Of a DNA stretch of 64,000 bases, positions 9,819 to 30,600 are shown piece after piece. The notes under the pieces were generated by a model, which worked only from the letters and a program-made list of their open reading frames with translations, was not told the origin of the DNA and searched no databases. Both the position numbers and the translations under genes were made by a program. The stretch comes from Aulosira sp. ZfuVER01 (lineage in GTDB: Bacteria; Cyanobacteriota; Cyanobacteriia; Cyanobacteriales; Nostocaceae), in assembly GCA_034530615.2 (NCBI GenBank), contig JAVRCV020000003.1, positions 10,633-74,632 of the forward strand. Reading direction: 5' to 3'. Each line of letters opens with the position of its first letter. Within the stretch, counting starts at the first letter, position 1.

Positions 9819-9926
9819 AAATTGTCACAAATGCATTTCAAACAATTGGGAATTTTATAAAAATTCTGAGCAGCAAAAGCTACTACTCAGAATTTTAGTG
9901 ATTTTGAATTTTAAATTTTGAGTTAT

Positions 9927-10982
9927 TCAAGATTCTGGTTTAATGCGATTTAATTGCGAGAGCAAATATTGTGCCACCAAGGTGGGTTGTTCTGCTTGCA
10001 TGAGCGATCGCACTACCGCTACACGTTTTGCACCTGCATCAATCACGTCATTGATATTATTTGCATCTATGCCGCCAATTGCAAACCAGGGAATAGAGCA
10101 ATTTTTGGCAGCATAGCTGACATATTCTAAGCCTGCGGCTGGCTTACCTGCCTTTGTTGGTGTTTCATAAACTGGCCCGACACCAATATAATCAGCACCT
10201 TCCGCTATTGCTGCTTGCATTTCTTCTAAATTTGTGGTGGAACGTCCGATGAGGCGATGGGAACCGAGTAATTGTCTGGCGATGTCAATGGGCATATCTT
10301 GCTGTCCTAGATGCACGCCATCTGCATCTACCGCCAAAGCCAGATCTACACGGTCATTAATAATGAAAAGAGCGCCGTAGAGATGGCATAGCTGTCGCAG
10401 TTTTTTAGCTTGTTCTAGACGAATAGCATCATCAGCAGTTTTGTCACGGTATTGTAACAAAGTCAATCCACCTTTGAGTGTAGCTTCCACAGTTGTCAAT
10501 AGATTTTCTGACGGTGAGGTAACTAGATACAGACGCGATCGCCACAGCAGTTGATGGCGCTGATAACCCAATAAATTGCTTTCTAAGGTGTAAACTTGAT
10601 ACCGCATCTGCTTAAATGCTTTACCCATCTCAGAGTGATAAAGTTTACCGTATTCTTCTAGCACCCGCATTGCTTCTTGCACGCGACAAAAGTTAGCTTG
10701 CAACACGGCTTTGATGCTAGTGCGTTGCTCCTCTTGGGGATGTGTTAACTCCGTACCAGTATCCCCTGGTGTATCTCGTGCTGCTCTTATTTCCGCTGTA
10801 TGCCAGTTAGCTACCTCTTGTCGCAGATGCTTGCATTCCCCAGTCAACTGAGAATTATTTAACCCAAAGCGACACCATTCTTCGATAATTCGCAAACCCT
10901 CACGAGCGCGATCTAAATTAGCATCTAAAATTCGGTAGACAACTTGCTGCATCTGCTGTGTTTGGCTGTATGGATCGACCAT
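9927..10982 (-). CDS. thiE: Thiamine-phosphate synthase, cyanobacterial type with N-terminal ThiD2 domain (start may be further upstream, to 11045)
   Basis: RILDANLDRAREGLR, QYRDK, INDRVD, GVHLGQQD, GPVYETPTK motifs. Confidence 0.95.
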   Translation of the reverse strand: MVDPYSQTQQMQQVVYRILDANLDRAREGLRIIEEWCRFGLNNSQLTGECKHLRQEVANWHTAEIRAARDTPGDTGTELTHPQEEQRTSIKAVLQANFCRVQEAMRVLEEYGKLYHSEMGKAFKQMRYQVYTLESNLLGYQRHQLLWRSRLYLVTSPSENLLTTVEATLKGGLTLLQYRDKTADDAIRLEQAKKLRQLCHLYGALFIINDRVDLALAVDADGVHLGQQDMPIDIARQLLGSHRLIGRSTTNLEEMQAAIAEGADYIGVGPVYETPTKAGKPAAGLEYVSYAAKNCSIPWFAIGGIDANNINDVIDAGAKRVAVVRSLMQAEQPTLVAQYLLSQLNRIKPES

Positions 10983-11078
10983 TACAACAACCCCATTCCT
11001 GCTTTCATCAAAAGACGGAAAATCAACTACTCTAGTAATTGTCATTTATAAAATTGCTATTTTTACTAGAAATTTACT

Positions 11079-12350
11079 ATGCACTCAAAACATAAGAGTA
11101 GCAAGGATTCTATCAAATTAGCAGATATACGTGTCGGTTCAGATAAAGGTAGTTTAAGGCTACAGTTCAGCACTCGCATTAGCCAGAAGTTCTACAGCAA
11201 GCGACAAGCTTATAAAGGACTGGGGAGGAGAGACACCCCAGAAAATCTGCAATGGGCAAATCAAATCGCAGCACAGATACAAGCTGATATCGATCGCACA
11301 GATGGTAGCTCATTCGATCCAACACTCGCTAAATATCTAGAAATTAAGCAACTCACAACAATTAACCAGTTCAGCAATCCTCCACAACCACCTAAATTAG
11401 GACAATTATGGCATGAGTTTGTTGATTGGAAATTGCAAACAAAGCAGATCCAAAAAAGTACCTATAAAAAAAATTTTATTGTTTACCACAATCTAATTAA
11501 AGAATTTTTAGACTTAGAATTAAATCTTGATACTGCCAATAGCTTAATTCAGCACTTATTACTAAAGCAAAGTAACTTACAACAAATAAAAAAGCTATTT
11601 TGTTTGCTGAGTAATATGTGTCAACGGGCTATTAGTAATCAGCAATTAACGGCAGATTATTTTATAGAAATCAAAAAAACTTACAATATACCCAAAAAGT
11701 CGCAAAAAATCTCAGAATTAGAAGATTATAGAGCTTATAACATCCAAGAAAGAGATTTGATCGTTGAATCATTCCGTAATTCTGAGCAAGCCTCTATCAG
11801 ACATGGTGCTGATTTAATTGAGTTTCTGTTTCTCACTGGTTGCAGACATGGTGAAGTATTCGCTTTGAAGTGGAAAAATATCCAACTAGAGGAGGGTTGG
11901 ATATTTTTTAAAGAATCATTTGATAGTAGTGCTGGTATTACTAAAAAATCAAATAATAATACTGAAAGACTATTTAAAATTCAAGGGATGAATAGGTTAG
12001 TTAATTTATTAACAAGATTATATGCAAACGGCAAAAAGGAAAATGAATTAGTTTTTAGAACTATCGCTGGCAAGCAATATTCAAGTAATACCCTTACAGA
12101 TATCTGGACTGGCAATACTGTTGAGGTCAGAGGTAAAGTCTACCACTATCCTGGGGTAGTAAAGAAATTAGCCCAAGAGAGAAAACTAGAATATTTAAAA
12201 CCCTATTCTACACGTCACACTTTTATCAGCATTCAAGCTAATCATGGAGTTGACTTAAAACTACTTGCTAATAGCTGTGGTAATAGCGTAGAGCATATTA
12301 TTAAACATTACTTGCATTTTGATAAGAATGCCAGGTTGAAAGATATCTAA
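11079..12350 (+). CDS. Tyrosine recombinase/integrase with N-terminal arm-type DNA-binding region
   Basis: TGCRHGE (catalytic R), PYSTRHT, CGNS...IIKHY (catalytic Y); N-terminal GSLRLQF motif of cyanobacterial integrases. Confidence 0.85.
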   Translation: MHSKHKSSKDSIKLADIRVGSDKGSLRLQFSTRISQKFYSKRQAYKGLGRRDTPENLQWANQIAAQIQADIDRTDGSSFDPTLAKYLEIKQLTTINQFSNPPQPPKLGQLWHEFVDWKLQTKQIQKSTYKKNFIVYHNLIKEFLDLELNLDTANSLIQHLLLKQSNLQQIKKLFCLLSNMCQRAISNQQLTADYFIEIKKTYNIPKKSQKISELEDYRAYNIQERDLIVESFRNSEQASIRHGADLIEFLFLTGCRHGEVFALKWKNIQLEEGWIFFKESFDSSAGITKKSNNNTERLFKIQGMNRLVNLLTRLYANGKKENELVFRTIAGKQYSSNTLTDIWTGNTVEVRGKVYHYPGVVKKLAQERKLEYLKPYSTRHTFISIQANHGVDLKLLANSCGNSVEHIIKHYLHFDKNARLKDI

Positions 12351-12512
12351 GAGGATGTTTGAAAAGTCCCTAATGATGTATCAAATACTTTTAGATCCCC
12401 CTAAATCCCCCTTTTTAAGGGGGATTTTGATTCAGTTTTCCCCCTTTTTAAGGGGGGTAGGGGGGATAAATTAGTATCTAAAATCACAGCTAACCACTTT
12501 TAAAACAACCCC
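12351..12512. mobile_element. MITE, family B (TIR GAGGATGTTTGAAAAGT, TAA target duplication)
   Basis: Imperfect 17-bp TIRs; TAA at 12348-12350 and 12513-12515; internal CCCC/GGGG palindromic module. Confidence 0.75.
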
Positions 12513-12547
12513 TAAGAGGATTTATTTATTATGTATGAGAAAACCAC

Positions 12548-12590
12548 AATAAGATTCCCAACTTTTTTAAAAATTTGGGAATCTTATTTT
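12548..12590. terminator. Hairpin between convergent integrase and sbp genes
   Basis: AATAAGATTCCCAA...TTGGGAATCTTATT inverted repeat. Confidence 0.65.
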
Positions 12591-12630
12591 TCAATCAAAA
12601 ATTAATTGGGTAGTAATCTGAATCATTAAA

Positions 12631-17570: not shown

Positions 17571-18581
17571 TCATATTGAACTAGCAGTCTCCCTAACAGC
17601 TTCTCGCAGCCTTTCCACATCGCGCATCGGTGGTGCACCAAACATTCGCTTATATTCCCGGTTGAAGTGCGAAGCATCGTCATAACCCACACGGTAGGCA
17701 GCACTGGTAGCGTCAAGGTTTTCCCCCAGCAGCAGCCGACGAGCCTCCTGGAGCCGCAGTTGCTTCTGGAACTGCAAAGGACTCATTGCAGTGACAGACT
17801 TGAAGTGATGATGGAAGCCTGAGACACTCATTCCTAGCTCTCGGGCAATACTTTCAATCCGCAGCGGCTGATTAAAGTCTTTACGAAGTCGCTCAACGGC
17901 AAGAGCGATGTGGTGGGTGTAGCCACTTAGAACTGCAATATGACGGAGCCGACTACCTTGCGCTCCCATCAGGAGTCGGTAAATGATTTCCCGTGCGAGC
18001 AGTGGCATCAGAACCCGAGCTTCGCTGGGAGAGTCCAGAAGCCGAACAAGCCTGACTACAGCATCTAGCAGCGGCGCATCCAATGGACTCACATCGATCG
18101 CTTTAACATTGGCACCCCTTTGGAGTGAGGGATAGCCCGCCTCAACCATGACTGAACCGACCAGGGTAGGGTCGAGATCGAGGCGAAGACTAAGAAACGG
18201 TTGCTCCTTGGACGCTTGGAGAATTTGGCTGATAATTGGCAGTTCGACTGTAGCCAGCAGATAATGCATTGGATCGTACTGATAGCGATCGCTGCCCAGA
18301 AGAACTTCTTTGCTGCCCTGAGCAATTACACAAAAGGCAGGTACAGAGACATCATGAACGCATTCCCCAGGTGAGGAGGTGCGTTTAAAGTGCAAACCTT
18401 TGAGCGGCTCAATTGCCCCATCATGACGAATAGCCTGTGCAATCCGCTCTTTCAGTTCCTCTCTGTTGGCTTGCGTTCTGTCTGTCTCGCGCTTTGCCTG
18501 CGAGTCGTTCATTAAATCCATATCAGACTTTTCAATTGTTTTGACAGCGTTCATTTCTAAGTTTGCAGGATCGTACAACAA
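17571..18581 (-). CDS. AraC-family transcriptional regulator (YqhC-like; true start may be slightly downstream)
   Basis: AraC N-terminal domain plus HTH SPLQFQKQLRLQEAR...VGYDDASHFNREY. Confidence 0.92.
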   Translation of the reverse strand: MLYDPANLEMNAVKTIEKSDMDLMNDSQAKRETDRTQANREELKERIAQAIRHDGAIEPLKGLHFKRTSSPGECVHDVSVPAFCVIAQGSKEVLLGSDRYQYDPMHYLLATVELPIISQILQASKEQPFLSLRLDLDPTLVGSVMVEAGYPSLQRGANVKAIDVSPLDAPLLDAVVRLVRLLDSPSEARVLMPLLAREIIYRLLMGAQGSRLRHIAVLSGYTHHIALAVERLRKDFNQPLRIESIARELGMSVSGFHHHFKSVTAMSPLQFQKQLRLQEARRLLLGENLDATSAAYRVGYDDASHFNREYKRMFGAPPMRDVERLREAVRETASSI

Positions 18582-18860
18582 TCTTAGACGATTGTTCTAT
18601 TGCTTGCCTTTCAGGATTCATAGAATGAAGCTAAAGCAATGAAAAATGATTCCGGCTGCTTGTAAGCATTCTAGATTTTTATTCAAGAGAAAACTCAGCT
18701 TTGATGGGGCAAGAAATTCGTCTACTGACAACCAAAATGGCGTCAAGGCTACCTTGCTTCTTAAAAAATTCCCATCCCTACTGATAGAGGAAGCGATAAG
18801 TACTCAATCTCTACGATTGGGCTAGCCACCGAAATAGCCTCAAGTGAAGGAATTAAGCAA

Positions 18861-19271
18861 ATGGACATCAAAAGAAGTGGCTCACAGCCTTCTGCCAAAG
18901 GGCCGACCGAGTATTTTATCGGCACTGTCCGCATTGACCCCCTGTTCGAGGCACACGATCCAGCACGCACATCTGGTGCTAGTGTCACATTCGAGCTTGG
19001 TGCTAGGACAGCATGGCACACCCACCCGTTGGGACAGACCCTGATCGTGACGGTTGGCTGCGGCCTTGCACAACGCTGGGGCGGAGCGATCGAGCAAATT
19101 CGACCCGGAGACGTAATCTGGTTCGCGCCGGGTGAGAAGCATTGGCACGGTGCGACCCCAACCACAGCGATGACGCACATCGCCATTCAGGAATGGCTTG
19201 ACGGCAAGCCTGTGGGCTGGCTGGAACAGGTCAGTGATGAGCAATACCAGACATCAAACGTAAACCAATAG
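18861..19271 (+). CDS. Cupin domain protein
   Basis: [14 protein letters not shown] and PGEKHWHGA cupin motifs. Confidence 0.92.
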
Positions 19272-19282
19272 AGCATCTATTT

Positions 19283-20332
19283 ATGTACAACACGAAAGCT
19301 TATGCCGCAGCCAGTGCAACATCACCCCTGGCCTCTACCCAAATCAAGCGGCGCGATCTAAATGAACACGACGTTCAGATCGAAATCCTCTTCTGTGGTA
19401 TCTGTCACTCCGATCTCCATTCAGTGCGGAACGAGTGGGGCGGCGCGGTCTATCCGATGGTTCCCGGTCATGAGATCGTGGGACGTGTCACGGAGGTTGG
19501 CTCGGCAGTTACGAAGTACAAACCCGGCGATCTGGCGGCGATCGGCTGTATGGTCGATTCGGATTTGACCTGCCCCCATTGCAAGGCTGGACTTGAGCAG
19601 TTTTGCCAAAATGTAATCCTCACCTACAACTCCCCAGACAAGCACCTGGGAGGAGTCACTTATGGGGGCTACTCCAATAGCATTGTTGCCGATGAACGTT
19701 TCGTTCTGCGCGTCCCAGACAATCTCGACCTGGCTGGAGTTGCACCACTCCTTTGCGCTGGGATTACAACTTATTCACCCTTGCGCCACTGGGGAGTTAC
19801 TGAGGGCAAAAAGGTTGGTGTGGTTGGTCTTGGTGGGCTGGGGCACATGGGCGTGAAGTTCGCCCATGCGTTTGGTGCTCACGTCGTTGCCTTCACCACC
19901 TCGCCTGACAAGACGGAAGACGCGCTTCGCCTCGGTGCTGATGAAGTGGTCGTCTCCCGCAATGCCGACGAAATGCAGAAGCACGCGGGCAGCTTCGATT
20001 TCATCCTTGACACCGTCTCCGCCAAGCACGACATCAATGCCTACCTCAACCTGCTCCGCCTCGATGGCAACATCACCCTGGTCGGCGCACCCGAAAAGCC
20101 CCTGGATGTTGCAGCATTTAGCCTGATTATGGCTCGCCGCAGTCTCTCCGGCTCTAGCATCGGTGGCATCCCCGAAACCCAGGAGATGCTTGACTTTTGC
20201 GGCGAACACAACATCACTGCCGATGTCGAAGTTATTCCCATCCAGAAGGTCAATGAAGCTTACGATCGCCTGCTCAAATCCGATGTAAAGTACCGCTTCG
20301 TGATTGATATGGCGTCCCTGAAATCAGAATAA
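19283..20332 (+). CDS. NAD(P)-dependent zinc alcohol dehydrogenase (cinnamyl-ADH/YahK-like)
   Basis: CGICHSD, GHEIVG, GLGGLGH, YRFVID motifs. Confidence 0.95.
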   Translation: MYNTKAYAAASATSPLASTQIKRRDLNEHDVQIEILFCGICHSDLHSVRNEWGGAVYPMVPGHEIVGRVTEVGSAVTKYKPGDLAAIGCMVDSDLTCPHCKAGLEQFCQNVILTYNSPDKHLGGVTYGGYSNSIVADERFVLRVPDNLDLAGVAPLLCAGITTYSPLRHWGVTEGKKVGVVGLGGLGHMGVKFAHAFGAHVVAFTTSPDKTEDALRLGADEVVVSRNADEMQKHAGSFDFILDTVSAKHDINAYLNLLRLDGNITLVGAPEKPLDVAAFSLIMARRSLSGSSIGGIPETQEMLDFCGEHNITADVEVIPIQKVNEAYDRLLKSDVKYRFVIDMASLKSE

Positions 20333-20405
20333 CCGAGCTTTCACCTCGGCTGATTGGCAAATCCGCTCTTGCAGAACTCAGAAGTGACTCAACAAAAAGA
20401 AGAAG

Positions 20406-21152
20406 ATGATGATTAAAGACAAAGTTGTGATTATTACCGGCGCCTCATCAGGGATTGGTGAAGCCAGTGCGAAATTGCTTGCAAGCAAAGGCGCTAAAGT
20501 CGTATTGGGCGCGCGACGCGATCGCCAATTGAAACAACTGGTTGATGAAATTCAAAAAGCTGGCGGACAAGCAGCCTATCAAGTGATGGATGTGGTTAAC
20601 CCATCTGATAACGCCCAGATCGTCAAGCTTGCCAAGGAAACATTTGGAGGTGTCGATGTTATTTTCTTGAACGCTGGCATCATGCCCACTTCTCCACTTT
20701 CTGCACTGAAAACTGATGAATGGAATCAAACGGTTGATATCAATATCAAGGGTGTACTAAATGGTATCGCTGCTGTGTTGCCAACGTTTGTTAGCCAAAA
20801 GTCTGGGCACGCGATCGCTACGTCATCGGTTGCTGGATTAAAAGCTTATCCAGGTGGTGCGATCTATGGTGGGACGAAATGGTTTGTACGCGATTTCATG
20901 GAAGTTCTACGCATGGAGTCTGCTCAAGAGGGGACTAACATTCGGACTGCGACAATTTATCCTGCTGCAATTAACACTGAGTTGTTGAATCAGATTACCC
21001 ACCAAGATGCGGCTGAAAAAATGACAAAGTTGTATCAGCAATATGGCATCTCACCCGATCGAGTAGCCAATGTTGTGGCGTTTGCGATTGACCAGCCAGA
21101 AGACACAAACGTGAACGAATTTACGATTGGCCCAACCACGCAGCCTTGGTGA
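20406..21152 (+). CDS. SDR family oxidoreductase
   Basis: TGASSGIG, NAG and YGGTK motifs. Confidence 0.93.
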   Translation: MMIKDKVVIITGASSGIGEASAKLLASKGAKVVLGARRDRQLKQLVDEIQKAGGQAAYQVMDVVNPSDNAQIVKLAKETFGGVDVIFLNAGIMPTSPLSALKTDEWNQTVDINIKGVLNGIAAVLPTFVSQKSGHAIATSSVAGLKAYPGGAIYGGTKWFVRDFMEVLRMESAQEGTNIRTATIYPAAINTELLNQITHQDAAEKMTKLYQQYGISPDRVANVVAFAIDQPEDTNVNEFTIGPTTQPW

Positions 21153-21241
21153 TGGCGGTTAGGCTAAGTGCGATCGCATCTCAATGGGATAATCATGCAA
21201 AAGCACAAACTTGACAACAGCAACGACTACCCGCAAAGGAG

Positions 21242-22937
<1,696 letters not shown>

Positions 22938-22948
22938 GGCAATATTAG

Positions 22949-23968
<1,020 letters not shown>

Positions 23969-24037
23969 ATAGCGAAAAATATGTTCTCTCAGATACTGAA
24001 GAAGCTCGCGCGGGCACACTGCATGAGGCTGTAAAAG

Positions 24038-26662
24038 TCAAGATGATTGCATCGGATTAACTGGGTTAATTAAACCCTGTGCCGTACCAAATAGATTGAT
24101 CGGATTGCGACCATCGGTAATTAAAACACTTTGTAAACCCAAAGCTTGCAATAATCTTGCCTGCATTTCTGGCCCGGCTTGTGCCATTGCTATCAAGGTT
24201 TCTGCGCCAATCGCTGCTACTTTCTCGCGGAACTCTGCACTGGTAATTTCCGCCATTCGCTGTGCTTTTTCTATCTCTAAACCAACAAGTGCTTGTTGGT
24301 GGGCGAGTTCTGCCATTTGTCGGGCGCGTAATTGCGCTAATTCTGCTTCGGCGCGAATTCTGGCGGCTTCTGCTTCTTGTTGTGCCAAATTTACTGCTAA
24401 TTCGCCTTGAATTCTGGCGGCTTCTGCTTTCGCTCTAGCTTCAGCTGTAGCATGACCTGTAGCTTCAATTGCGGCGTTTTCTGCTTCTAATTCCAGCAGG
24501 TTTTTCCGCTCACTTGCGGCTGCACTTTTATCGACAATTGCTTGCCTTTCTAATCTAGCTTTTGCTTCTTGTTCGATCCGTTCCGCATCATGACGAGCTG
24601 CGGCTTCTTGGGCATCGGTGGTAATTTGAATGGCAATTTGCACCGACTTTTGTAGGCTGTCTAAGGTACGTTCGTCAACAGGCTCAACGGATTGAATATC
24701 AACATTAAATATCACCAAATTATTGGTTCTAAACCGGAATTCTTCGCCAACGTGTCCCGCTTCATCAATACCAAAGACGGCGGTGCGAATAATTCGGGCA
24801 GAATTGCGGTGAAATTCATCAAATTTGACACCTGCTACTGCACCACGCACACGAGATGCGATCGCTTTACAAGCTGTATCGACAAAATCCGGTACTTGAA
24901 ACAGTTTGGCAGCAGCTTGTTCGTCGTGACGCTCAACGTCAAAATACCAGTTATAGGACAATCGCAGTTGGAGGCGTGCATGATCGGAAGTTTCCACGGC
25001 AAATAAATCCGTCATAAAATCTGGCCCTAGTAATAACGCCAGTGACTTAATGCGATGCATTTGTTTGGGTACACCACCTGACAAACTCAACACGGTAAAG
25101 GCTTCATCAGGCCCCAACATTACCAAATCCGGGCCAAAAACAGTGCGCGCAGTTCTTTCTTTATAATCGTGGATCTGAACTGCGGCATTTTGGGGAACGT
25201 GAAACACAACCGCCCTGGTGCGATCGCGTTTTTTGGCTGGAGCTGAATCTGTTTGCACCTGGTGATGCTGTCCGCGATCGGAAATGGGGTCAAGTTTGTG
25301 TGCTAGCAGTTCTTCTACGACGGTTGGTACTTCTTTTTGCCAAAGTTCTTCATAGGGGGTGAGCATATAGGCTTGAGGGCCACTCACTAGCTTAAGTTCG
25401 CCTGTTTGAATATCTCGGACGTAAATTCCTTCATTCTTATCCAAGGGGATAGCTTGGCGTTTCTCAACTACTTCCACTTCCACACGCGGAATGTAATCTC
25501 TGGGGCCAGTAATCATCCACATATCACCAGGTTGGCGTTGAATCCGATTTGCGCCTTCACCTTCTTCCAAAGCTTCTTTAGCGCGGAGTAACAATGCTTC
25601 TTGCTCGCCTAAAACATAAACTTTTTCGATCCCCTTTTCTAAAGATTCTCCAGGATGCAGGAAAAATGAAATTCTACCTTGACGTACCTCACGCATTCCT
25701 AATTGTGGTTTACCTGCATCATCAATTGGGTTAACAACAATACACCATTCTCTGTCACCCAAAATCGTAATTTTAACTTCTCCTACCACCACTTCATAAA
25801 CATCAGGAATGTGGATTTCTGTGTCTTCAAAAGTTACTAACCATTCATCTCCAGCTTTGCGCTGACGACCAAAAACATCGTTAAATGTGCGTTGCGCCCG
25901 CAGATGTAAGGCTGTCTTTTCTGTTAACACGTAGGCATTAATCATGCCCACCACTTCTTCATCAACCCCAGGTAAATAAGCTCCTTCTTCTCTTACCAAC
26001 CACTCTTCACCAGATCTACGCTGATTACCCAGGCGATCGGTGCAATTTTGCCGCGCTAATAAGCGTAAAGCTTGGTTAGGCTTAATGATTTGCGCCGTAA
26101 CTCTTTCGATGACTTCTACTTCTACACGGGGAATATAAGTTCCAGGGCCTTCAAATAGCCACTCATCTCCCGCCAAACGATTGATATTTCTAGTTTGAAT
26201 TTGTCCGTCAACTGTAACGCTAATCGTATCAGTGAAATCTCGAAGCGATCGCAGACGTAAAGCTTGATTAGTCTCAACCACTTGCAGGCGCTTAATTTCT
26301 CCCTCTAACTCTTCGCCAGGATACAGGGGAAATGGTTCTTGGGCAAAACGGATTTCTTCGTCACCGTACCGTAGTTTTACCTGACCGAAGTCATCAGTGA
26401 TGGGTTGATTTTCCGCGTTACGTTGCACTGGATTTGCAACTATACAATAATGGCGTGGTGGAACCACTATCATAGGCTCAGGTTTTAATATCAACCGTTC
26501 GTGGTCGCGCAGAGTAATGGTTTGAGGCCCAACTTCCAATCGGGTAACACCAGTATTGTTGTCTAAAACATGAATAAATTGCTGGGGTTTTAGGCGAATA
26601 ACACCACTAGAAGTTCCCGGAGCATCGCTTTTAGTTTCAATTTTACGTTCGGTTGTATTCAT
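24038..26662 (-). CDS. Major vault protein (MVP) homologue, full length
   Basis: MVP repeats (HVLDNNTGVTRLEVGP, VPPRHYCIVANPV, PFPLYPGE, GDEWLFEGPGTYIPR), shoulder (LGPDFMTD...ETSDHARLQL, ACKAIASRVRGAVA), long Ala/Glu cap helix, cap ring (AGPEMQARLLQALGL...ITDGRNPINLF). Confidence 0.95.
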   Translation of the reverse strand: MNTTERKIETKSDAPGTSSGVIRLKPQQFIHVLDNNTGVTRLEVGPQTITLRDHERLILKPEPMIVVPPRHYCIVANPVQRNAENQPITDDFGQVKLRYGDEEIRFAQEPFPLYPGEELEGEIKRLQVVETNQALRLRSLRDFTDTISVTVDGQIQTRNINRLAGDEWLFEGPGTYIPRVEVEVIERVTAQIIKPNQALRLLARQNCTDRLGNQRRSGEEWLVREEGAYLPGVDEEVVGMINAYVLTEKTALHLRAQRTFNDVFGRQRKAGDEWLVTFEDTEIHIPDVYEVVVGEVKITILGDREWCIVVNPIDDAGKPQLGMREVRQGRISFFLHPGESLEKGIEKVYVLGEQEALLLRAKEALEEGEGANRIQRQPGDMWMITGPRDYIPRVEVEVVEKRQAIPLDKNEGIYVRDIQTGELKLVSGPQAYMLTPYEELWQKEVPTVVEELLAHKLDPISDRGQHHQVQTDSAPAKKRDRTRAVVFHVPQNAAVQIHDYKERTARTVFGPDLVMLGPDEAFTVLSLSGGVPKQMHRIKSLALLLGPDFMTDLFAVETSDHARLQLRLSYNWYFDVERHDEQAAAKLFQVPDFVDTACKAIASRVRGAVAGVKFDEFHRNSARIIRTAVFGIDEAGHVGEEFRFRTNNLVIFNVDIQSVEPVDERTLDSLQKSVQIAIQITTDAQEAAARHDAERIEQEAKARLERQAIVDKSAAASERKNLLELEAENAAIEATGHATAEARAKAEAARIQGELAVNLAQQEAEAARIRAEAELAQLRARQMAELAHQQALVGLEIEKAQRMAEITSAEFREKVAAIGAETLIAMAQAGPEMQARLLQALGLQSVLITDGRNPINLFGTAQGLINPVNPMQSS

Positions 26663-26991
26663 AAATTAATTAATGTTTTTAAAGGTTAAAATTTTTGTAT
26701 ATAGAAATATAACTTCAAATAATTATTTTGACTCTGCGCTCCTGCAACCTTACTCTAATGGGAAATTTTTGCTCAATCCTAACTTATTTGTATAATAATG
26801 TCTCGATATTTTGAATTTAATTAAAGTAGATTTATGTAAATATTTGTGATTGCGATCGCGCAATCGGGGAAGATCGAGGAAGAAACAGCATAACAATCCC
26901 TGCATCAATCTAGTAGATGATTGTGCTACAGAGTAACGCAAAATTATCGGTTTTTATCCGTAAGTAAATTGTTTGATAGCCTGCCATACCT

Positions 26992-27189
26992 AATTGGTGT
27001 CAACTTAACGTGAAAGGCTTTGTTACTAAAGATATTTGATCCCCCTAAATCCCCCTTAAAAAGGGGGACTTTGATTCTTTTCCCCCCTTTTTTAAGGGGG
27101 GGTTAGGGGGGATAGAAAGTTTATGGTGCTAAGAGAGATAACCTCAAAGACTTACGCTGTATACATCTAGGCTTAAGTTGACACCAATG
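26992..27189. mobile_element. MITE, family A copy 2 (9-bp TSD GCCATACCT)
   Basis: TIR ATTGGTGTCAACTTAA / TTAAGTTGACACCAAT; direct repeats at 26983-26991 and 27190-27198. Confidence 0.9.
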
Positions 27190-27294
27190 GCCATACCTGT
27201 GCCACTAATAAGTGTTGATGACAAGCGTTTAAAACATGGCTAAATATCCTCAGCGTTTTGAGAATTTTCCGCAGTTATGAGAATGGGATATTCA

Positions 27295-30200
27295 TCAATC
27301 ATCCTCCTCAGACTTAGCTGGATGTTGCCCAGAAACGATAATAAAACCAACAGAATCTAGGCGAATAGTAGGATTACGAATCCCATCAATAATTACCTGA
27401 TTTAATGCCGTTTCGTTATTAAGTTCTTGCTCCAGTACCGGAGCGGAAAATCGCTCTTGGTTAGTAAGTCGGTTGAAACGCAGGCGTAATTGGTCTAGTC
27501 TCTTACCTAATTTTTGTTCAGCACGGGTGGCGCTGTTTTCACATAATCCAATAAATTCGGGACGCTGACTGAGTAATTCCAAAGATGTGCGATGCGCCTG
27601 ATAGCAAAATTCTGACCAATTGCTAGACTCAATAAAGTTATCAAGAATAGATAAACGACTTTTGGCTAAGTTGTAATCTCGGAATTTACCCCCTTTGCCT
27701 TTATAAGGACGGTGCAGAATGTTTAAAAGTGTTTCATCTTCAACAGCACACATTGGTTCATTTCGTGCATCAATAAATACACTTTCTACAATTGGCGGGA
27801 ATAAACCATCGACCAGTCTTTGCAAAATTTTAGATTTGGGATTGTTTCCTTGGTAATTTGTTAAATTGGTTTCAATAATGTAATTAAATCGGAAACCATA
27901 CCATTCTTCACCTTCTCCTGCGTTCCAAGTTTCTTCAACTCGCCACATCGCAAAAGCTTTACCCCGGTCATCCCAATGGATATAAGATGATAATGCTTCT
28001 ACAAATTTTTCACCAATACGGTAGAGTTTTGCATCAGGTTGTTGATTGGCTACCTCACGGTTAAAAGTCCCAAATTCTTCTAAAACATCTGCAAAATAAC
28101 TACTCAAATCATCTGCTGGAATTAATGTATTTTCGGTAGGTTTATAACGCTTAAGTGTCGAGAAATTAGGATTAGTGATGGTTTTAAAGTTCAATGCCTG
28201 ACAAATCCAATTTTCAGTTATTTTTTGAATTTCTTGATGACGGGCATCATAATCATCTAAAACTTGAAAATATTGGGTAGCACTTTCATCCAAGGCATCT
28301 ATTTCATCTAAGGCGTTTTGTTCGCTAATTTTTACTTGTTCCTGTTCAATTTCTTGGGGAATTATTTCGATACTTTCCAAAATTCCCTTTGCACCAGATT
28401 TAAACAGGATTTCTGCTAATACTGGTAATTTTTCCTCAACATAAAACTGGAGACTAGCAATGGATTGCTTAAAGATATTAAACCCTTCTTTTAATAAGCG
28501 ATACCAGGCATCATGGAGACTATCCGGTAAGTCTACGCCAGCAAATACTGTTAACTCAACGTTCAATGAACGACCAATCCGGTCTATTCTACCAATTCTG
28601 TGTTCTATACGATTTGGCGACCAAGGCAGGTCAAAATAGATCATGTTGTTGATAAATTGTAAGTTACGTCCTTCTTCGCCGGAAGAATCGCAAACTAAAA
28701 TAAAGCATTTGGGGTCTTGTTTAAATTGATTTAAGTTCTTCTCTACTTGAGAGGGAGTTTGTCCAACTTGATGGCTGACAACAGTCCCTTCACCAAAACG
28801 ATCGCTCAAGTAGCGGACAATTTCGGCGCAAGTTTGCACAAAGCTGGTAAATACAACAATTTTTGGCCAACTGTCTCCCGGGATCGGTCTTTTAATCCGT
28901 TGTTGAACCTCTGCAAGCAATTTCGGGAGGTTGAATTTCAAGGATTGTAATTTTAAAGGTTCGCAGAGTTGGTAAAGTATGACTGTCTTGAGTAATTCCA
29001 GGCGATCGCCATCCTCTGAAGGCTGTTCGATAATTCGCAGCAAGCTTTGCAAAATCTCTGCTTCTCCAGCAAATTTAGGAGTTTCAGTGAGGATGCGAAG
29101 GCTATCAGCGCCAAATTCCCGAATTAATTCCGCAGGCGAGACACTCTTTAAACGTGCTTGAATTACTTGTGTAAAAATACCCAACCAAGTACCAGAAGCA
29201 CGGAAGAACAAGAGAAAAATGTGGTGATATTGTTTCTCATCAGGAGCCGCATTACGCCACGCCTCAATTAATTCGTGAATGTCAGGCGATCGCTCGTCTA
29301 AATCGTACTCGGCTCTAGGTGTAATATTCCGGTCAAAAATTACATCTTCTACAGAAGCACGACGATTGCGAAGCATCCTTCTGTGAAGTCTGTAGGTATC
29401 GCTAATATGGGTACGAATTGCCCTGACAATTTCAACGGTATCGTCAGCCTTTGCTTGTAAACTGTTTTCTAGATTGTCTGCCAATTTCAGTAAATACTCA
29501 TCTTCAGCAAACAGATTACGGAGATGCTGGAGATTAGTTTTCAGGACGGAGAGGTTTGCGCCTTCTTGAAATGACAGCAGAATTCGACCAATATCTTGGC
29601 GTTTGACTACCCGATCGCGAAAACCTGCTAAGTCATCAAGTTGATAAGTTTTTGGGTCAAGCAGATGCAGCATTGCGAGAAAATCTTGCTCGTGGTTGAG
29701 AACCGGGGTAGCCGAAAGTAGAAGCAGGCGATCGCTTTTATGGGCAAGATGTTTGCAACTCTCAAAACGCTGGCGCATTGCTGCATCGCTAGAGGTCGCC
29801 ATTGCTGCAATGTGGTGTGCTTCATCTAAAATTAGCAAGCCAATCTTCGCTTTTGGGTTGATTTTATGAAGATTCTCAACCGCAAGCACTGCTAGCCGTT
29901 TGGGAAAGTGGGAGATGTAAAACTTATTTTCTAATTCCTGCTGCCATTGTTGAAGTAAATATTGCGGAACTAGCACTACCACATATCCAGAAGGTTCATC
30001 CAATAAATATTGACGAACAATCGTACCAGCTTCGATGGTTTTTCCTAGTCCAACTTCATCCGCCAGTAGATAGCGTTGAATCGGGTCTTCGAGTACACGA
30101 CGGACAACTTCAACTTGATGTGGATAAAGCTTAATATTAGCGGAAATTAATCCCGTCATTCCCCGACTGACAGCCCGTTGTTCAATTAAGCATTTAACAA

Positions 30201-30600
30201 AAGCAAAGCGCCTATCGTGGAAGTAGGGGGTTTCTTGCCCCTTCATTGCCAGCGTCTCAATGGGGTCTGGTTGAGGTAAACTACAACGCACGTATATTTG
30301 TTGTTCGCTGACTGCGATCGTCTTTTTATCAGGTAAATCAACGAGATACTGATAAAGTTCCTCATCCCACTCGTAAATTCTGCCAATCAGCCATGCTTCT
30401 TGACTTTCCAGGCAAATATAGCATCGAGTTTGACAATCCAGTTTGAAGCGATATAGCGAACTTAAAGGTAAACTTTTTTCTATACGTTTTCCAACTGAGC
30501 AAAAATACTCAACTATTGCCTGAGTATCAGATATCTTAATTACCTTCCCTACGCCCAAGCTGTTATTTCGGGAACGTACCAACGAACCAATTTTTATCAT
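27295..30600 (-). CDS. SNF2/RapA-like helicase, probably DpdE family
   Basis: LLADEVGLGKT, DEAHH, LLSATP, GEEGRNLQF, PWSPNRIEHRIGRIDRIG motifs; the N-terminus resembles DpdE as I recall it. Confidence 0.85.
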   Translation of the reverse strand: MIKIGSLVRSRNNSLGVGKVIKISDTQAIVEYFCSVGKRIEKSLPLSSLYRFKLDCQTRCYICLESQEAWLIGRIYEWDEELYQYLVDLPDKKTIAVSEQQIYVRCSLPQPDPIETLAMKGQETPYFHDRRFAFVKCLIEQRAVSRGMTGLISANIKLYPHQVEVVRRVLEDPIQRYLLADEVGLGKTIEAGTIVRQYLLDEPSGYVVVLVPQYLLQQWQQELENKFYISHFPKRLAVLAVENLHKINPKAKIGLLILDEAHHIAAMATSSDAAMRQRFESCKHLAHKSDRLLLLSATPVLNHEQDFLAMLHLLDPKTYQLDDLAGFRDRVVKRQDIGRILLSFQEGANLSVLKTNLQHLRNLFAEDEYLLKLADNLENSLQAKADDTVEIVRAIRTHISDTYRLHRRMLRNRRASVEDVIFDRNITPRAEYDLDERSPDIHELIEAWRNAAPDEKQYHHIFLLFFRASGTWLGIFTQVIQARLKSVSPAELIREFGADSLRILTETPKFAGEAEILQSLLRIIEQPSEDGDRLELLKTVILYQLCEPLKLQSLKFNLPKLLAEVQQRIKRPIPGDSWPKIVVFTSFVQTCAEIVRYLSDRFGEGTVVSHQVGQTPSQVEKNLNQFKQDPKCFILVCDSSGEEGRNLQFINNMIYFDLPWSPNRIEHRIGRIDRIGRSLNVELTVFAGVDLPDSLHDAWYRLLKEGFNIFKQSIASLQFYVEEKLPVLAEILFKSGAKGILESIEIIPQEIEQEQVKISEQNALDEIDALDESATQYFQVLDDYDARHQEIQKITENWICQALNFKTITNPNFSTLKRYKPTENTLIPADDLSSYFADVLEEFGTFNREVANQQPDAKLYRIGEKFVEALSSYIHWDDRGKAFAMWRVEETWNAGEGEEWYGFRFNYIIETNLTNYQGNNPKSKILQRLVDGLFPPIVESVFIDARNEPMCAVEDETLLNILHRPYKGKGGKFRDYNLAKSRLSILDNFIESSNWSEFCYQAHRTSLELLSQRPEFIGLCENSATRAEQKLGKRLDQLRLRFNRLTNQERFSAPVLEQELNNETALNQVIIDGIRNPTIRLDSVGFIIVSGQHPAKSEEDD

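Follow-up and report, generated by a model that had tools for sequence, protein, structure and literature searches.

A native full-length major vault protein gene in a heterocyst-lineage cyanobacterium and its probable vault-like product

The minus strand of positions 24038..26662 of the window, the 64,000-nucleotide stretch of Aulosira sp. ZfuVER01 DNA that was analysed as a whole, encodes a complete, true full-length major vault protein (MVP). The gene is native to the cyanobacterial chromosome and is functional to judge by the strong purifying selection acting on it, and its product probably forms vault-like cytoplasmic cages by self-assembly. Bacterial MVPs of this kind are already in print. 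Daly et al. (2013, PMC3762200) described cyanobacterial MVPs with a predicted vault-type fold and docking, and such proteins were discussed again in 2019 (Sokolskyi, bioRxiv 10.1101/872010) and in 2023 preprints, so that the novelty claimed in the original prediction was overstated. Added here are a Nostocales-type host and a sharper view of the distribution, the selection and the absence of fixed partners. Neither vault nor colicin is mentioned in a paper about genes shared by gliding filamentous bacteria (PMC6390638).

The open reading frame comprises 874 codons and a stop codon (24038-24040), with an ATG start and no internal stop; its strand had been missing from the original prediction. 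The encoded protein starts with a variable, unmodelled extension of 16 residues (26615..26662, minus strand, as for all features below), and the alignment with rat MVP begins at residue 17. Residues 17-545 (25028..26614) form the MVP repeat region, which is supported by Pfam and the structural model and corresponds to repeats R1-R9 of the barrel wall according to the rat alignment. The repeats are directly followed by an SPFH-like shoulder domain, delimited by Pfam MVP_shoulder (residues 546-663; 24674..25027), and by a cap helix predicted as one continuous helix and aligned with that of rat MVP (residues 664-819; 24206..24673), which is rich in Ala (26%) and Glu (15%). The remaining residues 820-874 (24041..24205) comprise the cap-ring segment, aligned to rat MVP as far as residue 866, which pairs with rat residue 850, and a short variable C-terminal tail.

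Profile searches recover every Pfam MVP domain in this protein. In total, eight repeat matches are found: Vault in four stretches (residues 127-179, 191-232, 244-287 and 349-393; 227 bits), Vault_2 twice, Vault_4 (404-463) and Vault_3 (485-545), all of these models far above their cut-offs. Residues ~298-348, which lie between Vault matches, are covered by an unbroken alignment with rat MVP and are predicted to be beta-structured with a pLDDT of ~90. The MVP_shoulder match at 546-663 spans profile positions 1-118 of 118 with 174.7 bits against a cut-off of 25. Furthermore, a phmmer search against PDB sequences yielded nine distinct matches, all of them MVP, the best being 7pkz_A (E 2.1e-301, residues 17-866 on chain residues 3-850). 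The match to MVP is far beyond chance, and the identity to eight eukaryotic MVPs (24-65%) is spread across every domain. The original prediction, which listed repeats, shoulder, cap helix and cap ring in this order within an 874-residue frame and proposed a search with Vault and MVP_shoulder profiles, is borne out by Pfam, phmmer and the model, and a generic SPFH or coiled-coil match is excluded. The segments that it quoted, VPPRHYCIVANPV, PFPLYPGE, ETSDHARLQL, ACKAIASRVRGAVA...FHRNSARIIRTAVFG and AGPEMQARLLQALGLQSVLITDGRNPINLF, are all in the translation and are identical or near-identical in rat MVP.

Relatives of the protein carry the name 'colicin uptake protein' in the NCBI database, which would make it a TolA-like protein of the cell envelope. 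TolA domain II is likewise a long Ala/Glu-rich helix, and BLAST matches to TolA were noted by Daly et al. (2013, PMC3762200) and by Sokolskyi (2019, bioRxiv 10.1101/872010). However, neither TolA nor any other envelope family is matched in Pfam at E <= 0.001, NCBIfam gives no match, an N-terminal membrane anchor and a Tol-Pal context are missing, and every domain aligns to MVP. An envelope role of this type is barely conceivable, and the name is a mis-annotation of MVP relatives that reflects the composition-driven similarity of one helix.

A structural model was obtained with AlphaFold2 from a 64-row alignment and has a mean pLDDT of 83.7, compared to 44.4 for an earlier model from a shallow 20-row alignment. 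The model contains all-beta repeats (pLDDT ~90), an alpha/beta shoulder and a helix at residues 664-818 followed by short helices, while residues 1-18 have a pLDDT below 50. The best Foldseek matches are the rabbit, human and rat vault chains, with E-values of 6e-85 to 3e-62 and 52-56% identity over 794-849 columns. The global TM-scores to solved vault chains are only 0.37-0.47, which we ascribe to bending of the long chain with its many domains; the conformation within the cage is thus not recovered by the model. The next matches after MVP are the flotillin, prohibitin, HflK/C, QmcA, stomatin and erlin cages (E 1e-6 to 4e-4). A complex prediction with three copies of residues 545-874, performed with the 20-row alignment and without controls, scored 0.00 in two runs, a score that speaks neither for nor against assembly.

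The protein shares the domain order and the predicted fold of rat, human and rabbit MVP (PDB 4V60, 7PKZ, 9BW5, 9Z4W), is of similar length (874 compared to 861-893 residues) and aligns with the mammalian proteins from end to end at 52-56% identity. Compared to rat MVP, its N-terminus is extended by the 16 residues mentioned above, the third repeat contains an insert of 11 residues, and 10 residues are missing behind the shoulder. It further differs from the eukaryotic protein in its bacterial host, in whose genome no counterpart of TEP1, PARP4 or vault RNA was found.

The unusually close resemblance to animal MVP could also be explained by contamination or a chimeric contig, with the gene coming from a protist or animal in the sample. 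In addition, MVP was found in none of the 45 other sampled genomes of the family (0/45) and not in a genome of the same genus. Against such an origin, the HIP1 motif (GCGATCGC) occurs 63 times in the window where 0.49 are expected, and three of these sites (24858, 25220 and 26245) lie inside the MVP gene, whose HIP1 density (1.14 per kb) is like that of the window itself. The gene has no introns, a GC3 of 0.347 and a codon usage resembling that of other window genes. Calothrix sp. NIES-2100, which has a nearly complete genome, holds the gene between the same flanking genes, with a nucleotide identity of 87.6% for MVP compared to 80-90% for the flanks. All matches with an organism name among the best 120, which have 74-94% identity, are bacterial and nearly all are cyanobacterial. 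With regard to the sequencing data, a single 14.5-kb contig of one run (X1) covers positions 21000-27022 with zero differences and equal depth on either side of the gene, and in three runs, contigs reach across both the gene and the junction downstream of it with even depth, although the assembly may itself have been made from these runs. The genome is 99.99% complete with an estimated contamination of 0.3%. These data speak against a chimeric contig, and the argument from HIP1 sites and cyanobacterial context against a eukaryotic contaminant has stood up to the analysis of HIP1 density, codon usage and synteny. As far as sequence allows, contamination is refuted, and we give it next to no credence. 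HIP1 density and codon usage like those of the neighbours, the Calothrix flanks and the low dN/dS values described below establish that the gene is native.

Among ten pairs tested, dN/dS was 0.060-0.138 in all ten, with 0.06 at a dS of 0.55 for the Calothrix orthologue, and all 46 full-length bacterial copies that were translated are open frames. Column conservation was counted among 20 cyanobacterial proteins, in which 34-66% of the columns are invariant in every structural domain. The shoulder has 72 invariant columns out of 118, R1 has 28 of 54 with a mean identity of 86%, which places it among the most strongly conserved segments in the bacterial clade, and the cap ring (820-866) has 26 of 47; by contrast, neither the N-terminal extension (0/16) nor the tail (867-874; 0/8) has any. 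The patchy spread of the gene, its location in a variable region with two insertions and the lack of partner genes might suggest that the gene is left over from a former transfer, no longer has a function and is decaying. This is contradicted by the selection data, as the frame is intact here and in the other translated copies and dN/dS does not exceed 0.14 in any pair, and such decay is highly improbable.

The MVP gene is a stand-alone unit. Neighbour clustering of 808 ORFs of at least 80 residues from 56 loci revealed no non-MVP cluster common to more than 19 of the 56 loci, and no neighbour of MVP is conserved across 55 loci. The four largest non-MVP clusters were considered as partners and rejected because they represent large paralogous families or sharing among close kin only: hybrid histidine kinases and response regulators (19 loci), pentapeptide-repeat proteins (9 loci), class-V aminotransferases (6 loci) and WD40 Ser/Thr kinases (6 loci). 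The upstream neighbour of MVP differs between the window and Calothrix NIES-2100, and the 145 bases upstream of the start codon (26663..26807) are conserved between the two, being part of a single blastn segment that places positions 9854-12609 of the Calothrix locus (L007) on window positions 26807-24054. These 145 bases are likely to contain the gene's own promoter and leader. A consensus-based promoter scan of positions 23600-27400 gave two sites, where 6.6 are expected, and none upstream of MVP, while terminator-like sites in the same interval numbered six against 4.2 expected. No Rfam family reaches its gathering score within the whole window, and none of the 12 runs returned for window positions 23000-28000 is an RNA run. 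A mobile vehicle for the gene was considered and rejected: no plasmid match was found, no MVP relative was among 40 pattern matches in viral contigs, PADLOC has no family for the protein, and the two matching phage records show 25% identity over 35% of the protein.

As to the minor vault components, which the original prediction had assumed to be absent, the outcome is mixed. Neither a PARP domain nor an Rfam vault RNA was found in the host genome; these two absences are weak, since 14 control genomes were also silent in both searches. A TROVE protein is present, although it is of the Rsr/Ro60 type (534 residues, TROVE and vWA_Ro60 domains; 328 bits against NCBIfam Rsr, below the 900-bit cut-off). 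It was rejected as a stand-in for TEP1 because it is not a NACHT-WD40 protein and its distribution is unrelated to that of MVP, with TROVE in 9 of 40 other MVP-holding genomes compared to 22 of 45 MVP-lacking genomes of the family. The set of TEP1, PARP4 and vault RNA that defines a vault ribonucleoprotein was not found in the genome.

From the domain-for-domain match to the animal protein, we infer an animal-like mechanism. The assembled eukaryotic vault is a closed barrel of two halves built from 78 MVP chains. By analogy, MVP chains still being translated on polyribosomes would pair via the repeat domains at their N-termini and would then line up side by side, the repeat domains making up the thin wall of a barrel. 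Each end of the barrel would be closed by the SPFH-like shoulders together with the long cap helices, and two half-shells would join at the N-terminal waist, so that the product would be a hollow, homo-oligomeric cytoplasmic cage. Assembly in a bacterium is plausible because human MVP has been found to self-assemble into vault-like nanoparticles when made in E. coli (PMC9778704) and vault assembly has been described at polyribosomes via N-terminal dimers (bioRxiv 10.64898/2025.12.12.693869). Given that the gene has its own upstream region and no operon partner and that no counterparts of TEP1, PARP4 or vault RNA were found, the MVP shell alone would be the working unit. Its role may be that of a cage for general use, in which large filamentous bacteria would sequester or protect bulky contents of the cytoplasm, for example ribosomes or damaged proteins. 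Literature searches yielded no experimental report of a bacterial vault particle or of its proteomic detection.

Some observations speak against a closed vault: the residues corresponding to the N-terminal waist contacts of rat MVP are only partly the same in the phmmer alignment, the 16-residue extension precedes them, and the global TM-scores are low. Alternatively, the protein could form a half-cage or ring on the cytoplasmic or thylakoid membrane in the manner of SPFH proteins and organise or check a patch of that membrane. The SPFH cages (HflK/C, QmcA, flotillin, prohibitin, stomatin, erlin) likewise combine an SPFH-like domain with a long helix, pack laterally and form large homo-oligomeric cages; they provide the second tier of Foldseek matches, and a subpopulation of Dictyostelium vaults binds membranes via the shoulder region (bioRxiv 10.64898/2025.12.12.693869). 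The partial conservation of the waist would also fit such an arrangement. However, these proteins share 10-18% identity with the window protein and are membrane-anchored half-cages without MVP repeats, whereas the window protein has nine repeats and no anchor. Pfam Band_7 (PF01145) is not matched at E <= 0.001, and neither a membrane segment nor an amphipathic anchor was found in the protein, the highest 19-residue hydropathy being 1.28. Furthermore, R1 is the N-terminal repeat that connects the two halves in animals, and its strong conservation would be difficult to account for if it made no contact. A membrane-bound half-cage is therefore unlikely, and the closed cytoplasmic cage is the preferred reading.

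Within the phylum, MVP was found in 14 of 401 sampled genomes, and the eukaryote-like form is rare in heterocyst-lineage (Nostocales-type) genomes. The nearest relatives among the best 120 matches are those of Nostoc sp. T09 (94%) and Calothrix sp. NIES-2100 (93%), and these matches also include Allocoleopsis franciscana (as named in the source), Oxynema, Moorena and Symploca. The published cyanobacterial MVPs of Lyngbya/Moorea (F4Y3B4), Oscillatoria acuminata (K9TKX8) and Microcoleus PCC 7113 (K9WB38) belong to the same clade, the window host being set apart from theirs by its heterocyst lineage and a family otherwise devoid of MVP in the sample. The bacterial MVPs of the eukaryote-like form make up one well-supported clade of filamentous Cyanobacteriota, Thiotrichaceae (Pseudomonadota) and Chloroflexota.

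Myxococcota, Bacteroidota, Planctomycetota and Melainabacteria/Sericytochromatia have divergent MVP-like proteins of ~805-870 residues, and there are reports of such proteins from phages, CPR bacteria and Borgs as well. The divergent bacterial proteins share the shoulder, at least one MVP repeat model, the single-gene status and a similar length with the window protein, but show 23% identity to it, and Pfam recognises only Vault_3 and MVP_shoulder, sometimes with Band_7. In both trees that were computed, they are separated from the window protein by a branch of ~3 changes per site. The phylogeny against eukaryotic MVPs, which had also been proposed as a check, yields two trees that disagree (AU p 0.29) as to whether the eukaryote-like bacterial clade passed MVP on to eukaryotes or received it from them. 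Daly et al. (2013, PMC3762200) placed cyanobacterial MVPs next to Amoebozoa. Of 30 representatives of 50% clusters, the 7 that have an organism name are all eukaryotic, and a search with the closest representative yielded transcript-sized records and one mussel. The widest diversity of the family is bacterial.

The window MVP bears on the origin of the vault. One far-reaching and rather improbable scenario is that the filamentous bacteria of all three phyla build genuine vaults from MVP alone, that the bare shell is the ancestral working unit, and that their slowly evolving clade did not receive MVP at a later time but represents the closest living kin of the lineage from which the first eukaryotes obtained the vault. 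If this were true, a cultivable cyanobacterium would offer a simple system for finding the purpose of vaults. Few particles of eukaryotic cells are as large or as conserved as the vault, whose function has been called elusive (bioRxiv 10.64898/2025.12.12.693869). A bacterial MVP that shares over 50% identity with human MVP, strongly selected and devoid of the eukaryotic partners would be the simplest setting for studying the function of the shell, and close relatives of the window MVP are found in culture-collection strains.

The MVP gene (24038–26662, minus strand) is complete, native and under selection, and it stands without a fixed partner. It is an open frame with an ATG start encoding 874 residues, and all the features first reported for it are present, only the strand having been left unstated. 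The Pfam profile matches follow the domain order of animal MVP and score far over the cut-offs: Vault (four stretches), Vault_2 (two stretches), Vault_4, Vault_3 and MVP_shoulder. NCBIfam holds no model for the MVP protein. Among sequences of solved structures there were nine distinct matches, every one an MVP, of which the best was the rat chain 7pkz_A (E 2.1e-301; residues 17–866 against chain positions 3–850). In this alignment with rat MVP, the third repeat of the protein has one insert (11 residues) and one deletion (10 residues) follows the shoulder. The peptides quoted in the original prediction occur in the translation opposite identical or nearly identical rat segments.

Eukaryotic contamination had been argued against on the basis of HIP1 sites and of the clearly cyanobacterial sequence around the gene. 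Three HIP1 sites do lie inside the gene at the predicted places (1.14 per kb), and the window holds 63 against 0.49 expected. The gene has a GC content of 0.455 and a GC3 of 0.347, and its codon-usage distance to the other window genes is 0.091, with those genes' own range being about 0.06–0.31. The assembly (83 contigs, 8.03 Mb in total; completeness 99.99%, contamination 0.3%) contains a single MVP copy. A chimeric contig was also considered: the region is covered without a single difference by contigs from three sequencing runs, all of one study, one contig of 14.5 kb spans 21000–27022, and the run contigs break solely at a repeat at about 26997–27190, with equal depth on either side. These runs may be the source of the assembly itself, and the independent support is therefore the synteny with Calothrix sp. 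NIES-2100, a nearly complete genome with an MVP orthologue of 93% identity. One shared flank holds two Na+/H+ exchangers and a GNAT acetyltransferase, the other three genes. Nucleotide identity is 87.6% over MVP and 145 upstream bases and 80–90% in the flanks, while two insertions adjoin MVP in the window relative to the Calothrix locus. The gene is thus native and not a contaminant, and the sequence comparison fits its presence in the common ancestor of Aulosira and Calothrix NIES-2100, followed by inheritance.

Purifying selection is reflected in dN/dS values of 0.060–0.138 across 10 pairs of bacterial orthologues, although dS exceeds 1.2, near saturation, in four of these; Aulosira and Calothrix give a ratio of 0.060 (dN 0.033, dS 0.545). 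Among 20 cyanobacterial proteins, 34–66% of the columns are invariant in each structural domain, including 28 of 54 in the first repeat and 26 of 47 in the cap ring, and variation is free only at residues 1–16 and 867–874. Identity to seven named eukaryotic MVPs and one unnamed representative ranges from 24 to 65% and extends across all domains.

AlphaFold2 reached a mean pLDDT of only 44.4 on an alignment of 20 close relatives. With a second alignment of 64 rows, to which eukaryote-type representatives and divergent bacterial forms were added, the mean pLDDT was 83.7. The resulting model places beta-rich repeats at residues ~20–545, followed by an alpha/beta shoulder, a single helix (664–818) and short terminal helices. 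In Foldseek the top ranks are taken by rabbit, human and rat vault chains (E 6e-85 to 3e-62; 52–56% identity across 794–849 columns), with global TM-scores of only 0.37–0.47, which we attribute to a different bend of the very long chain. The cap helix is rich in Ala (26%) and Glu (15%), a composition that explains why relatives are labelled 'colicin uptake protein' in the sources.

Given this domain-for-domain match and the established behaviour of animal MVP, the Aulosira protein probably forms a cage. Its chains would dimerise via their N-termini on polyribosomes, and the dimers would add laterally to give two half-shells, which would then shut to form the hollow cage, as described for the vault (bioRxiv 10.64898/2025.12.12.693869). 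Human MVP is reported to yield vault-like particles in E. coli (PMC9778704), so the bacterial cytoplasm does not stand in the way. The strongest alternative is a half-cage attached to a membrane in the manner of SPFH proteins. The SPFH cages flotillin, prohibitin, HflK/C, QmcA, stomatin and erlin do occupy the next Foldseek ranks (E 1e-6 to 4e-4), and no membrane segment was found in the MVP protein, its highest 19-residue hydropathy being 1.28; we regard such an arrangement as rather unlikely. As to the role of a closed cage, we can only guess that it might sequester bulky material in large filamentous cells, the sole guides being the host range and reports of Dictyostelium vaults that enclose ribosomes or are bound to membranes (bioRxiv 10.64898/2025.12.12.693869).

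Partners were sought by calling and clustering 808 ORFs of at least 80 aa from 55 loci and the window. The widest non-MVP cluster, hybrid histidine kinases and response regulators, reaches 19 loci, followed by pentapeptide-repeat proteins (9 loci), class-V aminotransferases (6) and WD40 Ser/Thr kinases (6). Because these are large families in such genomes or common to kin only, we consider none of them a partner, and no cluster keeps a constant place beside MVP. The genes adjacent to MVP in the window are missing from the Calothrix locus. MVP is convergent with its downstream neighbour and separated from the upstream gene by 632 bases, and the 145 conserved upstream bases suggest a promoter of its own. 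As to the original prediction of a vault without TEP1, PARP4 and vault RNA, neither a PARP domain nor an Rfam vault RNA was found in the genome, in searches where control genomes were silent too. One TROVE protein is present. This 534-aa protein lies on another contig (C15 141070–141672; locus L006 484–2088, minus strand) and is of the RNA-binding Rsr/Ro60-like type (TROVE and Ro60 vWA). TROVE occurs in 9 of 40 other MVP-holding genomes. In a sample of 401 genomes spread evenly over the phylum it is present in 53: it is common in the window's family (22 of 45 genomes, all without MVP) and patchy elsewhere. By these two distributions TROVE is not tied to MVP.

MVP_shoulder was found in 14 of the same 401 genomes and in none of the 45 others of the window's family. 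It is also absent from the one genome of the same genus, where each flank is on a contig of its own and the sequence past the flanks is unlike the window. One family (f35) of non-photosynthetic relatives of cyanobacteria accounts for eleven of the 14; these eleven carry a divergent form (812–828 aa in four translated copies), with Melainabacteria and Sericytochromatia as its nearest named relatives. In some of these genomes there is an additional, shorter protein with the shoulder domain, its open frame measuring 476–481 aa. The divergent type is very widespread (6806 matches among 8000 candidates), with Planctomycetota, Polyangiaceae, Nannocystaceae, Bacteroidia and others as named hosts. A word-indexed search with the window's protein gave 2553 matches among 8000 scored candidates; the best 120 of these show 74–94% identity and, where named, come nearly all from filamentous cyanobacteria, Nostoc sp. 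T09 (94%) being the closest among the matches listed.

When each prokaryotic species was scanned through one genome, the eukaryote-like form turned up at no fewer than 55 loci. Among these are 40 in Cyanobacteriota, mostly Oscillatoriales and Coleofasciculales with one Nostocales by title, five in filamentous Chloroflexota, four in Thiotrichaceae (Thiomargarita, Parabeggiatoa), which are giant or filamentous sulfur bacteria, and five without an assigned group, all with HIP1 sites. One further locus (L052) comes from a bin labelled Actinomycetota; with 0.62 HIP1 sites per kb and an MVP 82% identical to the window's, it is probably a cyanobacterial contig in the wrong bin. The Thiotrichaceae and Chloroflexota proteins are 67–72% identical to the window's and fall in the same clade as the cyanobacterial copies. 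Our literature search found no paper on eukaryote-like MVP in either group: none paired major vault protein with Beggiatoa, and the one with 'Chloroflex' concerns Borgs. No plasmids, phages or viral contigs were found to carry this form.

Two trees were built against eukaryotic MVPs, and the bacterial eukaryote-like proteins form one clade in both, making their monophyly solid. The first (quick IQ-TREE, LG+C20+F+G4 by PMSF, SH-aLRT only) holds 73 rows: 27 of 46 full-length bacterial copies, the whole set of 43 representatives of 780–1000 aa from an exhaustive search, and three divergent f35 proteins as outgroup. Here the bacterial clade (support 99) contains cyanobacteria (99), Thiotrichaceae (100) and an unresolved Chloroflexota, and falls outside a clade of 41 rows (88, not starred), which includes all seven representatives with an organism name, each eukaryotic, its remaining rows being unnamed. 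The second tree has 47 rows, with 17 representatives dropped (eight flagged long branches and nine from crowded clades), 14 bacterial rows kept and the outgroup widened to seven divergent bacterial proteins. In this tree the bacterial clade (100) sits among eukaryote rows, adjoining Anaeramoeba (89), via nodes of 82–92 support. An AU test on these data, for a group named once the first result was known, gave p 0.293 for a single clade of eukaryote rows (log-likelihood 1.51 lower), so that this grouping is not rejected. The trees and the test do not decide whether the bacterial clade was donor or recipient relative to eukaryotes. Published views split the same way: three cyanobacterial MVPs were grouped with Amoebozoa and a transfer from a eukaryote proposed (Daly 2013, PMC3762200), the reverse direction was the subject of speculation (Sokolskyi 2019, bioRxiv 10.1101/872010), and in a 2023 preprint on phage MVPs the cyanobacterial proteins took a basal position to the eukaryote cluster. 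End branches in the first tree measure 0.03–0.4 changes per site for bacteria versus 0.65–2.4 for eukaryote rows; the bacterial clade is either young or slow-evolving. The window and Calothrix proteins nest among oscillatorian lineages, adjoining Potamolinea (97 and 88 in the first and second tree).

Sporadic bacterial homologues, mentioned in the original prediction, are on record for cyanobacteria from 2013 and since then for divergent bacterial, phage and Borg proteins; that cyanobacterial MVPs model and dock as vaults has likewise been in print since 2013 (Daly 2013, PMC3762200). The window's MVP adds a case in a lineage where the gene is rare. Our literature search turned up no experiments on a bacterial vault of any kind; the question is real and testable, but it is not a new one.

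The upstream neighbour of MVP encodes a full-length DpdE helicase (27295–30600, minus strand; 1145 bits with the NCBIfam equivalog, whose cut-off is 500, and 779 bits with PADLOC DpdE), which belongs to the Dpd system of 7-deazaguanine DNA modification and restriction. No other recognisable dpd genes adjoin it; it stands alone between MVP and the GNAT acetyltransferase and is missing from the Calothrix locus. A G+C-rich insertion of seven genes (17571–23968) encodes an AraC regulator, a cupin, a zinc alcohol dehydrogenase, a short-chain dehydrogenase, a TMEM175-like K+ channel and two aldo-keto reductases; GC3 lies at 0.43–0.67 in these genes versus 0.24–0.46 in other window genes. Because the syntenic Calothrix locus lacks it, the insertion is probably a laterally acquired cassette for carbonyl and alcohol detoxification. 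The short intergenic repeat at ~26997–27190 is rich in G/C runs forming hairpins; its depth in the three runs is ~10x that of the surroundings and all short-read contigs break there, which makes it a dispersed multi-copy element of the Aulosira genome.
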